DNA of 64,000 nt, taken from NCBI GenBank assembly GCA_022614965.1, contig JAKEHO010000067.1:2489-66488 (forward strand). The letters run 5' to 3'. This stretch comes from Gammaproteobacteria bacterium (GTDB taxonomy: Bacteria; Pseudomonadota; Gammaproteobacteria; JAKEHO01). The notes below the pieces were generated by a model, which saw only the letters and a program-made list of their open reading frames with translations, did not search any database and was not told where the DNA came from. The translations under genes were made by a program, and so were the position numbers. Positions 11,968 to 19,015 of the stretch are shown one piece after another (within the stretch, counting starts at the first letter, position 1; each line of letters starts with the position of its first letter).

Positions 11968-12306
11968 ATGCCCAAGAAGCCAATCTACAGGGTCATCTTT
12001 CACAACCAAGGCAAGATCTACGAGGTCTACGCAAGATATGCGCGGCAGGGAGACCTGTTCGGCTTCGTCGAAATCGAACAGCTGGTTTTCGGCGACAAGG
12101 CATCCGTGGTGGTTGATCCCTCGGAAGAGAACTTGAAGTCGGAGTTCAAGGGTGTCACGCGGACCTATATCCCCATGCACTCGGTGATACGCATTGATGA
12201 GGTCGAAAAAGAACGCGCCGGTAAGATCACCCAGGTAACCGAAGACGGTAAAATCGTCGCCCCCTTCCCCATCTACACGAAAAATAGCGAATTGAGCAAG
12301 AAATAG
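11968..12306 (+). CDS. DUF1820-family protein
   Basis: [17 protein letters not shown]...[29 protein letters not shown] pattern recalled for this family. Confidence 0.8.
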
Positions 12307-12466: not shown

Positions 12467-12539
12467 CATAACCCAGGGGGCGCTGCGGCATCGCCTTCAT
12501 TTCAAATCTACTTTAAGAAGAATCACTAGGAGGTTCAAT

Positions 12540-14243
12540 ATGAGCGCTTTTCCTCTAAAATTTCATGCTATAAGGAGTGGTTTGAGCGCCTTGGCCGGCG
12601 CCTTATTGGTTTCTCTGGCATCCGTCGGGCCGGCCCTAGCCGACATGGACGCCGTCACTCAGGACATGTTGACCGGATCATGGGAGGATGCCAATAACTG
12701 GCTCCACACCAACGGAGCCTACTGGCAGAAGCGTTACGCCCCGGCGAACCAGATCAACACAAGCAACGTGAACCGGCTGCGTCCCGCCTTCACCTTCCAG
12801 ACCGAAGTCATTGAATCCATGGAGACCTCACCAATCGTCGTGAATGGCCGGATGTTTTTGACCACCTCGTTCAATCACGTCTATGCGATTGATGCGGCGA
12901 CGGGTGAAGAGATCTGGCACTACAAGCACAAGATGGGGCCGGTGACGACTTACTGCTGTGGCCCTAACAATCGTGGCGTCGCGATCTTGGGGAAGATGCT
13001 CTACATGGGCACCCTGGATGCCAAACTGGTGGCGCTCGATGCGGATACCGGCAAGTTGATGTGGGAGACGCAGATCGCCGAGCCGGAACTCGGCTACAGC
13101 GAGACCATGGCGCCCACCGTCATTAACAACAGGGTGCTGATTGGCACAAATGGTGGCGAATATGGTGTCCGCGGATTCGTGAAGGCCTATAACGCCGCCG
13201 ACGGTAAGCTCGTCTGGACCTTCCATACGATTCCCGAAAAGGGGCATGAGGGCGTGTGGGCAACCCATGATGCCACGGGTCGCAACATGCTCCGCGACAT
13301 CGCCAAGGAAAAGGCTGACCTGAAGAACGCTGGCGACTTCTGGAAGCGACTTGGCGGCGGTGTCTGGCAGAATCCTGCGATTGATCGTGAGCTGAATACG
13401 GTCTACTTCGTGGTGGGTAATCCCTCACCGGACCTGGACGGCTCCATACGGCCCGGCGATAATCTGTACACCAATTCCTTGGTGGCGGTCGACCTAGACA
13501 CCGGCAAGTACAAGTGCCACTTCCAGTACATCGCCCACGACGTGTGGGACCTGGACGCAGTCAGCCCGGTCATCCTGACCGATGTTAAGGACAAGAACGG
13601 CAAAACGGTGCCGGGTGCCCTACACGGTGGCAAGACCGGCCATATCTATGTGCATGACCGTCGCAATTGCAGCCTGATCCGTTTCTCCGAGGCCATGGTG
13701 CCGCAGGAGAACATGTGGGTGCTGCCGACTAAAGAAGGCAAGCGGATGCTACCCGGTGCAAACGGCGGCGTAGAGTGGTCACCCATGGCGGTCAATCCTG
13801 ACCTCGGCTTGGCCTACGCCGTCAATTTGCACCAGCCGATGACCTATCATGTGGAGAGCACGCCCTACCCCGGTGGCAAGCTCTGGCTGGGCGGCGCGTT
13901 TAAGGTCATCCCAACTGAAGCGCAGTGGGGCAACATCACTGCGGTTAACTACAACAGCGGCAAGATCGCTTGGCAGGTCAAGACCGAACAGCCCATGATG
14001 GGTGGAGCTCTGGCAACGGCCGGTGGCTTGGTGTTCGCCGGCGAAGGCAACGGATGGTTCAGAGCCTATAATGCCGAGAATGGTACGAAGCTGTGGCAAT
14101 ACCAGGCGGGTGCCGGTGTCAATGCGCCCGCCGTCTCCTACACAGTGAACGGCAAGCAATACATTGCTGTTGCCGCCGGTGGCAATGTGCAGTTGAACTT
14201 CAAGCGCGGTAACAGCGTCGTCGCGTTTTCGCTGGTCGAATAA
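12540..14243 (+). CDS. periplasmic type-I PQQ-dependent alcohol dehydrogenase, putative lanthanide-binding clade
   Basis: AGGAGG RBS, signal peptide ending ALA, METSP, vicinal CC (YCCGPNNRG), [22 protein letters not shown]; no C-terminal heme domain. Confidence 0.92.
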
Positions 14244-14266
14244 TAAGCCCAAGACGCTATCACTTT

Positions 14267-14296
14267 AACGGCCGCCCCATCGGGCGGCCGTTTTTT
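14267..14296 (+). terminator. rho-independent terminator after the PQQ dehydrogenase gene
   Basis: AACGGCCGCCC-catc-GGGCGGCCGTT followed by TTTT. Confidence 0.85.
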
Positions 14297-14384
14297 GTGC
14301 GGTGCCGTATCTGATAGAGTGAACTCTTGCTAGAGACCGTAGGTCCGAGTCTCTGCAACCGTGATCTTCGTTAAGGGAGATAAA

Positions 14385-14966
14385 ATGTCGATGAAATTTT
14401 TGGGAGGTCTTTGCCTTGTTGCCTGTACGCTAGCTGGTGGACCGCTATTGGCGGATGAGTATGCGAGTATCAGGGACAAACTTCAGATCTGCTTCACCTG
14501 TCATGGTGAGGACGGCGCGTTGCCGCCAGAGGGCAAATACCCAATCCTCGCTGGACAACACTTCTACTATCTCTACAGTCAGCTTAAGGACTTCAATGCA
14601 GAGCGACGCCAAAACCCCGAGATGAGCCCTATGGCCGCCAACCTGACCAACGAGGAAATGCAAGCGTTAGCCAAGTTCTTCTCTGAGCAGTCCTGGCCGA
14701 GCACCGGGTTTGTATCCGACCCTGCTAAGGCAGAAAAAGCGGAGCTCAGCGCGATGTCCGGTGAATGCGTGCAATGCCATCTCGGCGGCTACGAAGGAGC
14801 CAGCGGTGTTCCACGACTCGCTGGTCAGCAGAGCGAATACCTGAAGCAAACCATGTTGGATCTTAAGACGAGGGCACGGGCTAATGCGCCCGACAAATCT
14901 TCCTTGATGAACGTCCTATCGGACGAGGACATCGACTATCTTGCCAACTATCTCGGCGGCCTATAG
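14385..14966 (+). CDS. periplasmic diheme cytochrome c4-like protein
   Basis: Signal peptide; two CxxCH motifs (CFTCH, CVQCH), each followed by P.LAGQ and a distal Met. Confidence 0.9.
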   Translation: MSMKFLGGLCLVACTLAGGPLLADEYASIRDKLQICFTCHGEDGALPPEGKYPILAGQHFYYLYSQLKDFNAERRQNPEMSPMAANLTNEEMQALAKFFSEQSWPSTGFVSDPAKAEKAELSAMSGECVQCHLGGYEGASGVPRLAGQQSEYLKQTMLDLKTRARANAPDKSSLMNVLSDEDIDYLANYLGGL

Positions 14967-14994
14967 TCAATACGCCAGTATGACTGGATACGAG

Positions 14995-15768
14995 TCATGG
15001 TGGCAGTTCAGCCTTTGACGGCGTGCCAGCGTTCTCGAACAAGTGAACGGCTCCAGAGTATCCGGCCTCTTTCGCATGGTCTAAAGCCGTTTTACCGTCC
15101 CTGTCCTTTATGGATGTCTTGGCGCCGGCGGCCAAGAGTGCCTGAACAGTCTCGGTGTATCCCCCGTCTGCTGCCATTATCATGGCGGTCATGCCCCGGT
15201 TATCCTGAAGGTTCGGATCAGCGCCGGCCTCCAGCAAATAACTCACGGTTTCAGGGTGCCCATAGCCTGCCGCCCACATCAGGATGGTGAGGTCATTGCC
15301 GTAGCGCGCGTTCACATTAACATCCTTCTCAAGCAGCAGCTTGACAATTTCAAGATCCCCGTCGCCCGCCGCATAGACGATCGCGGTCTTGCCTGCGTTA
15401 TCCACATAATCCACCCGAGCACCCGCATCAAGCAACAACCGTACGATGTCGATATGACTTCCGTAAACGGCCTCGGCCAAAGGCGAAATATTCTTCAGGT
15501 TCGGCCGGTTGACCTCCGCTCCATATTGGATCAAAAGCGCAACCGTTTCCGTGTGCCCTTCTCGTGCGGCATAGAGTAAAGGAGTGTTTCCGAACCGATT
15601 CCGTACGTTGACGCTAGCACCTTCGTCCAAGAGTGCTTTGACTGTATCCGTACTCCCCTCCTTCGCCGCATCCAAAAGGAGAAAATCCTGTTCGCGATCG
15701 GCTCGAACTGAGGAGACAGCTAAAACCGCAGCCATCAGACAGGCATAACGCACGGATCTGTGCAGCAT
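14995..15768 (-). CDS. exported ankyrin-repeat protein
   Basis: Signal peptide ending VRA; about 6-7 repeats of G.T(P/A)L..AA..G....V..LL..GA.VN. Confidence 0.9.
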   Translation of the reverse strand: MLHRSVRYACLMAAVLAVSSVRADREQDFLLLDAAKEGSTDTVKALLDEGASVNVRNRFGNTPLLYAAREGHTETVALLIQYGAEVNRPNLKNISPLAEAVYGSHIDIVRLLLDAGARVDYVDNAGKTAIVYAAGDGDLEIVKLLLEKDVNVNARYGNDLTILMWAAGYGHPETVSYLLEAGADPNLQDNRGMTAMIMAADGGYTETVQALLAAGAKTSIKDRDGKTALDHAKEAGYSGAVHLFENAGTPSKAELPP

Positions 15769-15855
15769 CTCATTAGCCCTTCTCTTATTGGCATTAGCAT
15801 ACGCGCGCCGAAATAATGATTGCGGATCCCGGAAAGTCGAACTGTTTTTCTTCTT

Positions 15856-16881
15856 TTAGCGGTCCGTCGAGTACGTTAACAAGGTTTCTACGTGGGCGGC
15901 AACACTGCTGGCCAAGCCATCCAAATTGTAACCGCCTTCGAGAACCGAAACTAGACGGCCACGACAATGCCTGCCAGCAATATCCATTGCCCGCTGTGTG
16001 ATTGCCACATAGCCATCGTCTGTGACATCAAAACAACCCAGCAAGTCGTCCTTTCTGCTGTCGAAGCCGGCCGAGATGAGCACCAGATCCGGTTCGAATA
16101 CATCGGCCGCCGGTAGGAGGCGCTGATCAAACGCCGAGACGATATCCGCGTCTGTCGCCCCGCAGTCGAGGTGCACATTGATATTGTAACCGTAGCCCGG
16201 GCCGGCACCTTTGCGGCGTGGATCACCGGTGCCCGGATAGGCATGATAATCGTGGGTGGAGAAGTACAAGACGGTCGGATCATCATAAAAAACCGCTTCC
16301 GTTGCATTTCCATGATGATAATCCCAGTCTATGATCAACACCTTATTGATGCCATGCACCGCCTGTGCATACCGGGCCGCGACCGCGACCGTATTATAAA
16401 AACAAAATCCCTCTTCCTTGCCGGTATTTGCCGCATGATGGCCAGGGGGGCGTACGGCACAGAACGCGTTACGTAGGCGACCCTCACAAACCTCTGTGAC
16501 AGCAGCCAACGCTCCCGCGACTGCATGCATTGCAACGATATGTGTTTTACCGTAGCGGGCGCGAATGGATGCGATGTGAGCCTCATCATGTACCCTCAAT
16601 AAGTGGGAATGCACGTTATCAAGCGGTCGAACTTTGACAACGTCATTGACCAGCCCCGTGTCTTCCATTTTGTCTCTAATTGCGGCCAATCGCATGGGCG
16701 ATTCGGGATGCCCAGGCGATAACCAATGTTCCATGTAGAGCGTTTCGAACACATACCCTGTCCCTGCACCGATCCGCTTCACGGCCAGCATTGCGTCGGC
16801 GGAGGATGCGAGCCGCCAGAAAGTCAGTATGCTCCCCGCCAATATGCCTGAGAGGCAGCTCACAAAGGCTCTTCGTTTCAC
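15856..16881 (-). CDS. histone deacetylase-family Zn amidohydrolase with twin-arginine leader
   Basis: MKRRAFV leader; HPESP, RPPGHHA, GFCFYN, DWDYHHGN, YPGTG, SAGFD and LEGGY motifs. Confidence 0.9.
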   Translation of the reverse strand: MKRRAFVSCLSGILAGSILTFWRLASSADAMLAVKRIGAGTGYVFETLYMEHWLSPGHPESPMRLAAIRDKMEDTGLVNDVVKVRPLDNVHSHLLRVHDEAHIASIRARYGKTHIVAMHAVAGALAAVTEVCEGRLRNAFCAVRPPGHHAANTGKEEGFCFYNTVAVAARYAQAVHGINKVLIIDWDYHHGNATEAVFYDDPTVLYFSTHDYHAYPGTGDPRRKGAGPGYGYNINVHLDCGATDADIVSAFDQRLLPAADVFEPDLVLISAGFDSRKDDLLGCFDVTDDGYVAITQRAMDIAGRHCRGRLVSVLEGGYNLDGLASSVAAHVETLLTYSTDR

Positions 16882-17040
16882 ACCCTAGTGCCTAGTTTCT
16901 TGTCCCGTGATTGGGGCCCACCATACGAAGCCGCACCAAGATTATTAGTCTTCTTAGCCTATTAGAGGAACTACTTTATGATAACATTCAATGGTGATTC
17001 GCGATTTGTTGCATGTATTGTGCCGATGTAGCCAGCCGCA

Positions 17041-17550
17041 ATGAAGTCTAGCGTGTTTGCATGTCTACTTGTAGCCTATCCGCTATCTGCCCTTGCGCAA
17101 TGGACTGTCATGAACGATATCGATGCCAACACCAACGAAAAAACCAAGGTTGCGTATACCAATAACGCTGCAGGCTATAGCCTTGAGATCTACGAGGACA
17201 AGAACGGTGTTATTCGCTCACGCTTTACCCTCAATGGCGGATTCAGTGTGCTCGCGCAGAACAGCTGTCCAACGATTCAAGTCGACAAACACAAACCGAT
17301 AAACCTCTCGATCGATGATGGACTGTGCGTCCTCGATAAAAAAAGTGCCGAACATGTCCTCGGTTACGTTGAAAATAACCGGGTTATATCAAGGCCCTTG
17401 TACTACTTAATGAATGGTCGATCGATCGTCTATCGATTTAATCTGGAAAATGGCGGATATGGACAGACCGAGTTTTCCTTGAATGGCTCCAAATACGCAC
17501 TGGTAAGTACCCTAGGAATCGAGATCGAGGTAGTACCCAGCGACCAGTGA
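17041..17550 (+). CDS. exported hypothetical protein
   Basis: Clean 169-aa ORF with signal peptide ending ALA and one Cys pair in the mature part; family not recognised. Confidence 0.7.
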   Translation: MKSSVFACLLVAYPLSALAQWTVMNDIDANTNEKTKVAYTNNAAGYSLEIYEDKNGVIRSRFTLNGGFSVLAQNSCPTIQVDKHKPINLSIDDGLCVLDKKSAEHVLGYVENNRVISRPLYYLMNGRSIVYRFNLENGGYGQTEFSLNGSKYALVSTLGIEIEVVPSDQ

Positions 17551-17875
17551 TCAACCTGTCAGCGACCCAGCTCGCCCTAGCGCCTTGCATGACAATGTCT
17601 GGACAGAGGCGAGCGACTGGTACAAAAGCAACGTTGGCCCGACTCCACACGCGCCCTAGCTGAGAGACTACGATCAGAGTTAACCGGGCGTAGTGCGCAA
17701 CCTCCTCCCAGTGCCCGATACACCGAGCACACTCGCCCCATCCAGTTACAGACTTCCCAGAAAATCAATATGCCGCGCAGCGGCAATGCCCGATAATGGA
17801 TTTAAAAGGGACATCCCAGCAAAATAAGCTACCACAGGATCATTCGTACACCGGCACTTGCACACCTCTTTTACG

Positions 17876-19015
17876 ATGCAAATTCGCTGCATTCAAAGCC
17901 TGCAGGATGTCCCCGCCGCCAACTGGAATCGGCTAACTGACGGATCCAACCCTTTTCTAAAGCATGAGTTCCTCATTGCACTGGAGCAGCATCACTGCCT
18001 CGAAGAAAACGGCTGGCAGCCCTATTATCTGGTTACGGAGAAAGAAGGCCGGCTGGATGGGGCCATGCCGTTGTATTTAAAGTGGAATTCCTATGGTGAA
18101 TTCGTATTCGATTGGGCATGGGCCGAGGCGTATAAGCGTGCGGGTGGTGCATATTACCCCAAACTGGTGGCCTCTATACCATTCACGCCGGTTACGGGAC
18201 CACGGCTGTTGGTGTGTCGATACGATGATCGGCAAGCGCAACCCATGGATGCGCTCATTGATGGAGCCCCTTCGCTGGCTCGCCAGCTTGACGTCTCGTC
18301 TCTTCATTTTCACTTTACCACTACAGAAGACACCGACCGGCTGGAACAACACGGATTGATGCGCCGTCTAGGCTATCAATATCACTGGTCAAACCACTTT
18401 TATTGGGACTTCCAGGATTTTCTAGACTGTCTAACGTCTAAAAAACGCAAACAGATCAAACGGGAGCGCCGAGCGATACAAGAGGCCGGTATTGCCATCG
18501 AACTTTTAAATGACAGCAACACTAATAAAGCACACTGGGAATCATTTTATGATTTCTATTGCTCAACATTTCTGCGCAAGTGGAGTAAACCGCGATTGAC
18601 TCTCGACTTTTTCAAGTCGATAGGAAACACCCTGGGGGATCAGACATTACTGCTGTTAGCGCGTCATCGTTCCCGATAGGTGGCAGGGGCCCTATTCCTG
18701 CGTGGAGGAGATACGCTGTTTGGGCGTTATTGGGGTTGCAGCGAGCAATTCGCGAATCTGCATTTTGAGATGTGCTACTATCAAGCCATTGATTATTGCA
18801 TAGCCAATCAACTGCAACGCTTCGAGTCCGGCGCCCAGGGAGAGCACAAGATTAGCCGGGGGTTTTCACCGAAGCGAACCTGGTCAGCCCATTGGATAAA
18901 AGATGCCAGCTTCCACAAAGCGGTCCACGATTTTCTTATACGTGAACGCCAGGTTGTCGACCGATATATCGGTTTATTGACTCAACACGCCCCTTATAAA
19001 CGGATGTCACCGTGA
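17876..19015 (+). pseudogene. DUF482 / FemAB-like GNAT protein interrupted by an in-frame TAG at 18677-18679
   Basis: SYGEFVFDWAWA, YYPKL...PFTPVTGPR, GRYWG, LHFE.CYYQ and GAQGEHK all lie in one frame across a single stop. Confidence 0.85.

Follow-up and report, generated by a model that had tools for sequence, protein, structure and literature searches.

A three-gene cassette of a predicted lanthanide quinoprotein, a dihaem cytochrome c4 and an exported ankyrin protein beside a probable resident deacetylase in a gammaproteobacterial genome

We describe a group of adjacent genes in a 64,000-nucleotide stretch of DNA (hereafter the window; contig JAKEHO010000067.1, positions 2,489 to 66,488, assembly GCA_022614965.1, Gammaproteobacteria), which encode a type I pyrroloquinoline quinone (PQQ) dehydrogenase, a dihaem cytochrome c4, an ankyrin-repeat protein and an HDAC-family deacetylase. 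An earlier account of these genes, made from the DNA letters with no database searches (the sequence-only reading), had joined all four in one periplasmic catabolic route. We find that the unit is very probably functional and composed of three genes, the dehydrogenase, c4 and ankyrin genes, and that the deacetylase is in all likelihood a bystander, a resident gene beside which the cassette landed. Taken as a whole, the picture of a three-gene cassette that acts as a periplasmic unit beside a resident deacetylase is one that we consider likely.

Quinoproteins of this type are exported, bind PQQ and a metal, oxidize CH-OH groups and make one-electron transfers to a dedicated class I cytochrome. 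In the mechanism proposed here, the predicted lanthanide-PQQ enzyme would oxidize a candidate hydroxyl compound in the periplasm and would pass the electrons to the dihaem c4, which the ankyrin protein would bind as a scaffold or maturation factor; onward electron flow to a terminal oxidase is assumed.

Conserved linkage of the dehydrogenase, cytochrome c4 and ankyrin genes

Relatives of the dehydrogenase were collected by scanning one genome per species and keeping the best 80 of at least 585 (70-78% identity), a set that is top-scoring rather than random and that, by record title, comes mostly from Alpha- and Gammaproteobacteria, with Burkholderiaceae, Acidobacteriota and Gemmataceae represented by one record each. 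A c4 gene lies directly downstream of the dehydrogenase in 77 of these 80 loci; the sequences of the other three end at most 114 bp from the enzyme, and c4 is present in all 77 loci with room to show it. The ankyrin gene is found in 73 of the 80 and occupies the same convergent position in 69; where the locus leaves at least 1.5 kb of sequence to show it (71 cases), it is present in 70. Both the dehydrogenase-c4 pairing and the linked ankyrin accessory put forward in the sequence-only reading are supported by these counts. The trio is co-directional on plasmids of Caballeronia and Paraburkholderia caribensis, convergent on a plasmid of Alloyangia, and divergent on a plasmid of Ideonella and in the gammaproteobacterial genome G015; its retention through three arrangements argues for function over the shared ancestry of a single locus.

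Other genes recur near the dehydrogenase at lower frequency, among them those for a TIGR03866 propeller protein (38 loci), the binding protein (28) and permease (19) of a ped-type ATP-binding cassette (ABC) system, and pqqB, pqqC and pqqE (18 each); 42 of the 80 loci contain a pqq, ped-type ABC or XoxJ-like gene. The XoxJ-like gene itself is present in only nine, and gene maps place it there beside a second, different PQQ enzyme. Across whole genomes, 6 of 400 Gammaproteobacteria carry the dehydrogenase clade, and among 341 genomes of the class that includes the Tistlia genome, seven hold the enzyme at 1e-200: two with the full trio, two cut by contig ends, with no ankyrin match, and three belonging to a sister clade. 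A Bradyrhizobium-type cluster of the clade comprises 1,693 members, and cultured carriers are found in Tistlia, Alloyangia, Ideonella and Paraburkholderia. A targeted literature search, with subscription journals outside its coverage, returned no paper that describes the trio; in the text available from one study (PMC9088363), an ankyrin, a c4 and a PQQ dehydrogenase are listed together, each in 2% of 53 islands, within a variable region and with no discussion.

Some loci have further companions. A 140-amino-acid exported protein with no Pfam or NCBIfam match is encoded beside the ped-type ABC genes in 15 of the 80 (L093 3397-3819 and 14 others). In soil Gammaproteobacteria (the L073-L100 group, e.g., L089 5798-7919), the dehydrogenase is preceded on its own strand by genes for a porin (14 loci) and for an exported protein with a SHOCT tail (16 loci), a possible sign that the substrate requires its own outer-membrane channel.

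Class, metal site and active site of the dehydrogenase

The dehydrogenase is an eight-bladed PQQ propeller without a fused haem or membrane domain (PF01011, no CxxCH in 567 residues). A structural model (predicted local distance difference test score 82.7) finds its best fold match in PedH, at a template modelling score of 0.81 and 32% identity. Identity to solved members of the PedH/ExaF, XoxF, MxaF and type II groups is 26-32%, placing the enzyme inside none of them. The match to TIGR03075, the methanol/ethanol family, reaches 465.8 bits (471 in one relative), below the cut-off of 480.05; even so, some plasmid-borne relatives bear that family's name in their annotation. The clade forms its own branch, with a Shimodaira-Hasegawa-like approximate likelihood ratio support of 96 in a quick tree; quick and FastTree trees serve solely to show that the clade is distinct, and none of the conclusions draws on the unpublished genome G039, a single outgroup row in one tree. 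It is also tight, with a mean column identity of 82% over 61 sequences, and 326 plasmid records contain 14 matches of 66-72% identity, the best of the rest reaching no more than 37%. The best match on the plasmid that bears Adh4 and Adh6 of M. aquaticum 22A is 34.6%, outside type 6a, and the score against the acido-empty quinoproteins (TIGR04528) is 323 bits versus 650, with pqqC above its cut-off in the host. These comparisons of sequence place the clade outside XoxF, MxaF, PedE/PedH, type II and type 6a. One of the Keltjens PQQ alcohol dehydrogenase type numbers 1, 3, 5, 7, 8 or 9 may already apply to it; the type 9 reference hosts given in supplement S3 of PMC8561711, Bradyrhizobium and Paraburkholderia, overlap the range of the clade, and we take this as a lead only.

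The predicted metal ligands E207, N294, D337 and D339 align with E199, N281, D323 and D325 of PedH (6ZCV; ligands as given in an excerpt of PMC11845868). The last two are part of a D-x-D motif (HDVWDLD in the window) that is present in 82 of 82 relatives and that the sequence-only reading had overlooked. D-x-D is an accepted marker of lanthanide binding, as stated in part of PMC11996626, and the extra Asp is needed for lanthanide function in XoxF1 and ExaF, according to the abstract of 10.1101/2020.02.25.964783. The motif suggests, with good probability, that the enzyme uses a lanthanide rather than calcium.

The vicinal cysteines C139-C140, the PQQ-stacking W276 and the catalytic D337 are all present, and K365 and E412 are invariant in the clade. 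Relative to PedH, the clade has Ala407 in place of Phe412, Lys365 in place of Arg350 and Glu412 in place of Asn417, Phe412 being the residue changed in structure 6ZCV. Because of these three replacements we infer a pocket that would be more open and more polar, with a substrate larger than methanol. The substrate is likely to be a multi-carbon or polar alcohol or aldehyde rather than methanol, the oxidation of which would be covered by a separate XoxF in the host.

An alternative that we regard as improbable is a calcium-using or metal-promiscuous general alcohol/aldehyde dehydrogenase, equivalent to PedE/ExaF, in which case the cassette would be an ordinary, redundant alcohol-oxidation unit. 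The membrane-bound glucose dehydrogenase Gcd of E. coli, a Mg/Ca enzyme, also has D-x-D; the nearest solved relatives of the window enzyme are PedH and type II alcohol dehydrogenases, its vicinal disulfide is retained, and PQQ enzymes overlap in specificity (PMC11996626, Fig. 1 legend). These points are set against the universal D-x-D of the clade, whose Asp is required in XoxF and ExaF in the text cited above, its 82% conservation per column with at most about 37% identity to other plasmid-borne PQQ enzymes, and the Ala, Lys and Glu at the positions of PedH F412, R350 and N417.

The dihaem cytochrome c4

Two CxxCH motifs are present in 78 of 79 c4 open reading frames (ORFs), and the window protein, with two class I haem domains, 193 residues and a predicted export leader, has the features expected of a cytochrome c4 of about 190 residues. 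The best solved match of the family profile is the Pseudomonas c4 6Q2U (7e-33), with FccA also among the solved matches. Haem 1 (C36/C39/H40) is paired with an invariant M80, whereas haem 2 (C128/C131/H132) has K171 at the canonical Met position, a departure from the His/Met pair expected at both haems of a c4 that is shared by 28 of 61 sequences; the others have Met (30), Leu (2) or Val (1). The haem 2 ligand is predicted to be Lys171 or, alternatively, the nearby Met175 that some c4s possess. A His/Lys haem would have a lower potential, and this one could be the haem at which electrons enter. That c4 is the direct electron acceptor of the dehydrogenase is, in our judgement, highly probable.

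The ankyrin protein and its partner

The ankyrin proteins form a recognizable family, with two signature motifs in 55 and 54 of 59 aligned members and six residues (K127, Y132, L160, W165, G168 and R191) invariant in all 59. By computed repeat register, these residues fall at positions that in the ankyrin fold line the concave binding face. A profile of the family ranks G283, G000 (the window's own genome), G001 (a sister species), G313, G151 and G015 highest of 400 Gammaproteobacteria, and five of these six hold the dehydrogenase clade. Where the gene is missing from the locus, a whole-genome profile search finds it elsewhere in G313, G793 and G452 and weakly in G794, with no family match in G795 or G337; only two strong matches occur among the 341 genomes of the Tistlia class, both beside the dehydrogenase. 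Although the gene lies mostly on the opposite strand, ankyrin repeats are common and G337 lacks it, it is extremely unlikely that the gene is carried along by the dehydrogenase-c4 pair without a role in it, given its retention in three arrangements and when unlinked, its invariant and non-generic residues and its rarity away from the dehydrogenase.

The identity of the partner is best approached through loci that differ in the cytochrome. Three sister-clade enzymes (L300 5126-7642, L301 5546-8019 and L302 5298-7788; 53-57% identity) have the same active-site motifs and a downstream sulfocyanin gene (PF06525), and the three genomes contain neither a c4 nor an ankyrin of the cassette families, tying the ankyrin to c4. 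Two dehydrogenase copies of P. sprentiae likewise have neither c4 nor ankyrin within 5 kb. Beyond the family, the next-best leader-bearing ankyrins are encoded next to dihaem cytochromes in seven genomes of Gammaproteobacteria; the order is NapC-ankyrin-FccA-FccB in four, with three flavoproteins confirmed by Pfam (L287 6756-10413, L290, L291 and L292; also L288, L289 and L293). On balance, the ankyrin appears to track the cytochrome more closely than the enzyme, and we somewhat favour a protein whose target would be c4, or c4 paired with the enzyme, and not the enzyme by itself.

A competing assignment, possible and clearly the weaker, has the ankyrin act on the dehydrogenase, binding it to load PQQ or metal or to activate it in place of XoxJ/MxaJ, with no connection to c4. 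It would account for the scarcity of XoxJ-like genes, found in nine of 80 loci and there beside a second PQQ enzyme, and for G337, which has a c4, no ankyrin and an enzyme without E412; pairwise identities also correlate more strongly for the enzyme-ankyrin pair (rho 0.66) than for the c4-ankyrin pair (0.54), shared ancestry being uncontrolled in both values. On the other hand, the sulfocyanin-paired enzymes manage without an ankyrin despite having the same active-site motifs, and leader-bearing ankyrins recur by dihaem cytochromes where there is no PQQ enzyme. We rejected the mirror-tree correlation as proof of co-evolution on the same ground of uncontrolled shared ancestry.

The names of Legionella effectors and MzaA were also rejected for the ankyrin protein, the scores being 28-112 bits versus cut-offs of 450-1400. 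A search with the ankyrin profile for fusions gave only generic long ankyrin proteins (best 120 of 7,236), and the ESM Atlas places the protein in generic clusters. A broader proposal, which we advance tentatively and as rather unlikely in full, is that exported ankyrins are a dedicated component that binds c4-type cytochromes and matures or positions them, here and in flavocytochrome c operons; in the cassette, a widespread lanthanide enzyme would feed a low-potential His/Lys haem from substrates of a novel class, such as polyols, sugar-like compounds or amino alcohols.

The deacetylase and its chromosomal backbone

The deacetylase is, as the sequence-only reading held, a predicted Zn amidohydrolase of the HDAC family, with H149/H150, D187/H189/D275 and Y318 intact in an alignment with HDAC6. 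Its relatives were collected in a metagenome scan, of which the best 80 of at least 553 were kept; 78 could be anchored, and 73 of these show a twin-arginine pattern. They make up a twin-arginine subfamily of HDAC-type deacylases at the aat/ate/infA locus of many marine contigs (window 15856-17550; L141-L220). Among these 80 loci the most frequent neighbours are orf17041 (33), aat (26), DUF1820 (25), ate (23) and infA (23), with the ankyrin gene in four and the dehydrogenase in two, which defines a chromosomal backbone of DUF1820, deacetylase, orf17041, aat and ate. DUF1820 and the deacetylase are seen together at 25 loci. In 19 of these, which represent 16 clusters at 90% identity, the two are directly adjoining, with a gap of 22-429 bp (at most 120 bp in 15). 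The cassette thus fills a site that is otherwise empty. Five other loci (L155, L169, L174, L179 and L201) hold unrelated cargo there and L142 holds the trio, so that the junction behaves as an insertion hotspot.

These maps revise the proposed insert between trxB and the DUF482-aat-ate-infA block: most genes of that stretch (quinone oxidoreductase, hydrolase, DUF1820, deacetylase and orf17041) are backbone that recurs in many marine contigs, and the true insert consists of three genes only, in a DUF1820-to-deacetylase gap that measures 3,550 bp in the window. A role for the deacetylase as the first step of a route is largely unsupported, with a match in none of 84 dehydrogenase loci (the best 80 plus four from related genomes) and, in the reverse direction, the dehydrogenase in 2 of 80 loci. 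Nor is there an orthologue in the 50 of the 80 dehydrogenase genomes that were searched whole; the eight matches at 1e-60 all show 42-46% identity and at most 220 bits, the close relatives scoring at least 360 bits at 52-77% identity. One locus (L068, genome G041) has the same backbone and cassette, the deacetylase being absent from both site and genome. Its absence from the dehydrogenase loci and genomes, and the empty site in 19 of 25 backbone loci, are why we regard the deacetylase as a bystander. The sequence-only reading had staked its route on co-occurrence of both the HDAC and the ankyrin with this dehydrogenase clade: the ankyrin does co-occur, in 73 of 80 loci, and the deacetylase in none of 84, yet the sister species and two metagenome contigs (L142 and L143) keep the block, so that the refuting condition named in that reading, no co-occurrence at all, does not strictly hold.

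No Pfam or NCBIfam family matches orf17041; in the ESM Atlas it falls in unnamed clusters, with weaker leads to IalB and VasI. In the main text available from a survey of deacylases (PMC11532494), the terms Tat, signal peptide and periplasm have no whole-word occurrence.

Observations that weigh against the three-gene unit

A number of observations count against the reading proposed here. The four-gene block recurs in G001, in the order c4-ankyrin-deacetylase-orf17041, and in L142 and L143, and the deacetylase-ankyrin junction in L151 and L152 as well. The two genes may be co-transcribed in L143 and L152, where the stop of the deacetylase and the start of the ankyrin gene overlap, and in L142, where that stop comes 26 bp before the start. 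A close deacetylase is present in five of the six Gammaproteobacteria with the dehydrogenase clade versus 10 of about 395 others, a comparison in which kin and habitat are not independent; in all, 15 of about 400 genomes of the class have it, and five have both genes, including G000 and G001, the two being unlinked in G015, G283 and G313. Within the proposed unit, a strong terminator-like hairpin stands between the dehydrogenase and c4 genes, and in G001 an integrase gene follows the dehydrogenase and c4 is on another contig, so that co-transcription of this pair is only putative. The Fcc-linked ankyrins lack the signature motifs of the family and may be analogues rather than relatives. Finally, c4 can occur without the ankyrin: G337, whose dehydrogenase is divergent, has a c4-family gene at an unlinked site and no ankyrin match at 1e-30.

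The recurrences of the block and the genome-level overlap speak for the four-gene route, in which, at least in this marine gammaproteobacterial lineage, the exported deacetylase would split an N-acyl compound to give an amino alcohol for oxidation by the dehydrogenase. Both enzymes have export leaders, the catalytic residues of the deacetylase are intact, and a cationic substrate could be accommodated by the acidic E412, which is invariant and lies close to the active site. We nevertheless hold this route to be very doubtful: no dehydrogenase locus or searched genome in the sets above has a deacetylase orthologue, 78 of the 80 deacetylase loci lack the dehydrogenase, L068 has the cassette at the same site and no deacetylase in its genome, and the site carries unrelated cargo in five other loci. 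The recurrence of the block fits the inheritance of one chromosomal site, one that may have been filled more than once since the enzymes at it in the window, L068 and L142 are not mutual closest relatives in trees.

Gene calls, export leaders and host background

All four ORFs are intact and adjacent, confirmed by ORF and Pfam matches, and form two co-directional pairs in convergent orientation, the c4 and ankyrin stops lying 28 bp apart (Table 1); in these respects the sequence-only reading stands. So does its claim that all four products carry export leaders: each has a predicted leader with a basic start, a hydrophobic core (11-residue Kyte-Doolittle maximum of 2.1-2.4 over the four N-termini) and an A-x-A-type cleavage site by eye, and the deacetylase begins with a twin arginine (MKRRAFV). 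Leaders were called from sequence patterns rather than by SignalP or TatP.

Table 1 Features of the locus in window coordinates
Feature	Position	Strand	Evidence or remark
Ribosome-binding site AGGAGG	12528..12533	+	6 nt ahead of dehydrogenase ATG at 12540 (sequence)
Cassette gene 1, type I PQQ dehydrogenase, 567 aa, Sec-type leader	12540..14243	+	PF01011, 1.8e-85
Intrinsic-terminator-like hairpin	14267..14292	+	dehydrogenase-c4 spacer; stem of 11 pairs (9 G-C) followed by a T tail
Cassette gene 2, dihaem cytochrome c4, 193 aa, Sec-type leader	14385..14966	+	PF00034
Cassette gene 3, ankyrin-repeat protein, 257 aa, export leader, about 6-7 repeats	14995..15768	-	PF12796/PF00023
HDAC-family Zn amidohydrolase, 341 aa, twin-arginine leader, GTG start; neighbour outside the cassette	15856..16881	-	PF00850, 2.5e-81
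orf17041, 169 aa, export leader, divergent partner of the deacetylase	17041..17550	+	no Pfam match
DUF1820 gene, left flank of the insertion site	11968..12306	+	PF08850

G+C content across the region is 0.54-0.59 versus a genome average of 0.54; composition therefore marks no island, and a horizontal island on this basis was rejected. A scan for hairpins gave five sites versus 4.5 expected overall, and only the strong one between the dehydrogenase and c4 was taken up; a comparable hairpin lies 3' of the dehydrogenase gene in G001. There, a tyrosine-integrase-like gene is found just past the hairpin (L032 11367-12620, G001:C23) and c4 begins another contig, suggesting the insertion of a mobile element between dehydrogenase and c4. 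Further along the window (17858-19015), the DUF482 gene (PF04339) is represented by two in-frame ORFs with one stop near 18679, and by a single 385-residue ORF in G001, pointing to a sequencing error or a pseudogene in the window.

The host assembly, 2.3 Mb and 87% complete, contains pqqB, pqqC and pqqE, ped-type ABC and propeller genes, a homologue of a TonB-dependent receptor and a XoxF-type enzyme with D-x-D that is split across two contigs (C3 and C80), and the host is likely a lanthanide methylotroph. The XoxF gene (L037 7084-8262; L038 1-9805; G000:C3, C80) is followed by one for a pseudoazurin, not a XoxG cytochrome, and then by a XoxJ-like gene, past which lie ORFs that by eye resemble formate dehydrogenase and subunits of a formyltransferase complex. 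A different PQQ enzyme with a high acido-empty score is found on a 4.9-kb contig of 58.6% G+C (L036, G000:C102) that is possibly foreign to the assembly; its short contig and G+C content led us to reject it as evidence on the host.

Significance and comparison with known systems

Only for a few clades of PQQ alcohol dehydrogenases is lanthanide biochemistry settled, and for most predicted clades neither substrate nor partner is known; the cassette names a likely electron acceptor and a likely accessory protein for a strongly conserved clade that is widespread in soil and sea. The clade occurs in cultured strains and is thus directly testable, with Met versus Lys at haem 2 and c4 plus ankyrin versus sulfocyanin as natural comparisons, and it would give a handle on an old question, the role of exported ankyrins beside dihaem cytochromes. 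The chemistry from quinoprotein to cytochrome c is already known, and the ankyrin accessory is unstudied.

E. coli Gcd is a membrane-bound, quinone-linked PQQ glucose dehydrogenase that uses Mg/Ca. It shares with the window enzyme the xKTG and xEW motifs at the K365 and E412 positions as well as D-x-D, but has no vicinal disulfide and is far more distant (156 bits). The Chromatium vinosum flavocytochrome c locus reportedly includes an ankyrin homologue, going by the title of Dolata et al. 1993, cited in PMC5573963, an arrangement also seen in the four NapC-ankyrin-FccA-FccB loci above; common to it and the cassette are a periplasmic dehydrogenase, a dihaem c4-like cytochrome and an ankyrin gene, and the flavocytochrome c loci differ in having a flavoprotein sulfide dehydrogenase, a NapC-type cytochrome and ankyrins without the family motifs. 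The deacetylase has the RPP and GGY motifs and the catalytic residues of the classical Zn deacylases HdaH, ApaH and AcuC, as described in part of PMC11532494, and differs from them in belonging to a subfamily with a twin-arginine leader (73 of 78 by pattern).

With XoxF-XoxG-XoxJ the cassette shares D-x-D and the combination of an enzyme, a dedicated cytochrome and a periplasmic accessory; it differs in an identity of 27-30%, a separate branch of the tree, the lack of a XoxJ and the presence of an ankyrin accessory in its place. PedH has a monohaem c550 as its neighbour cytochrome, whereas the neighbour in the cassette is a dihaem c4. PedH/ExaF (type 2b; 6ZCV, 6ZCW) and the window enzyme have in common an eight-bladed propeller, a vicinal disulfide, a Glu/Asn/Asp/Asp site, a leader and, often, ped-type ABC genes nearby, and are set apart by 32% identity in the structural alignment, by Ala, Lys and Glu at F412, R350 and N417, and by the ankyrin gene of the cassette. 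A comparable pairing appears in a preprint of July 2026 (10.64898/2026.07.10.737718), the available text of which describes six-bladed lanthanide PQQ proteins beside a dihaem c4 with a Sec leader, models the complex and states that a quinoprotein-c4 interaction was previously unreported. The term ankyrin is absent from that text, and the window enzyme is eight-bladed; the eight-bladed clade is a case separate from these six-bladed PQQ-c4 pairs.

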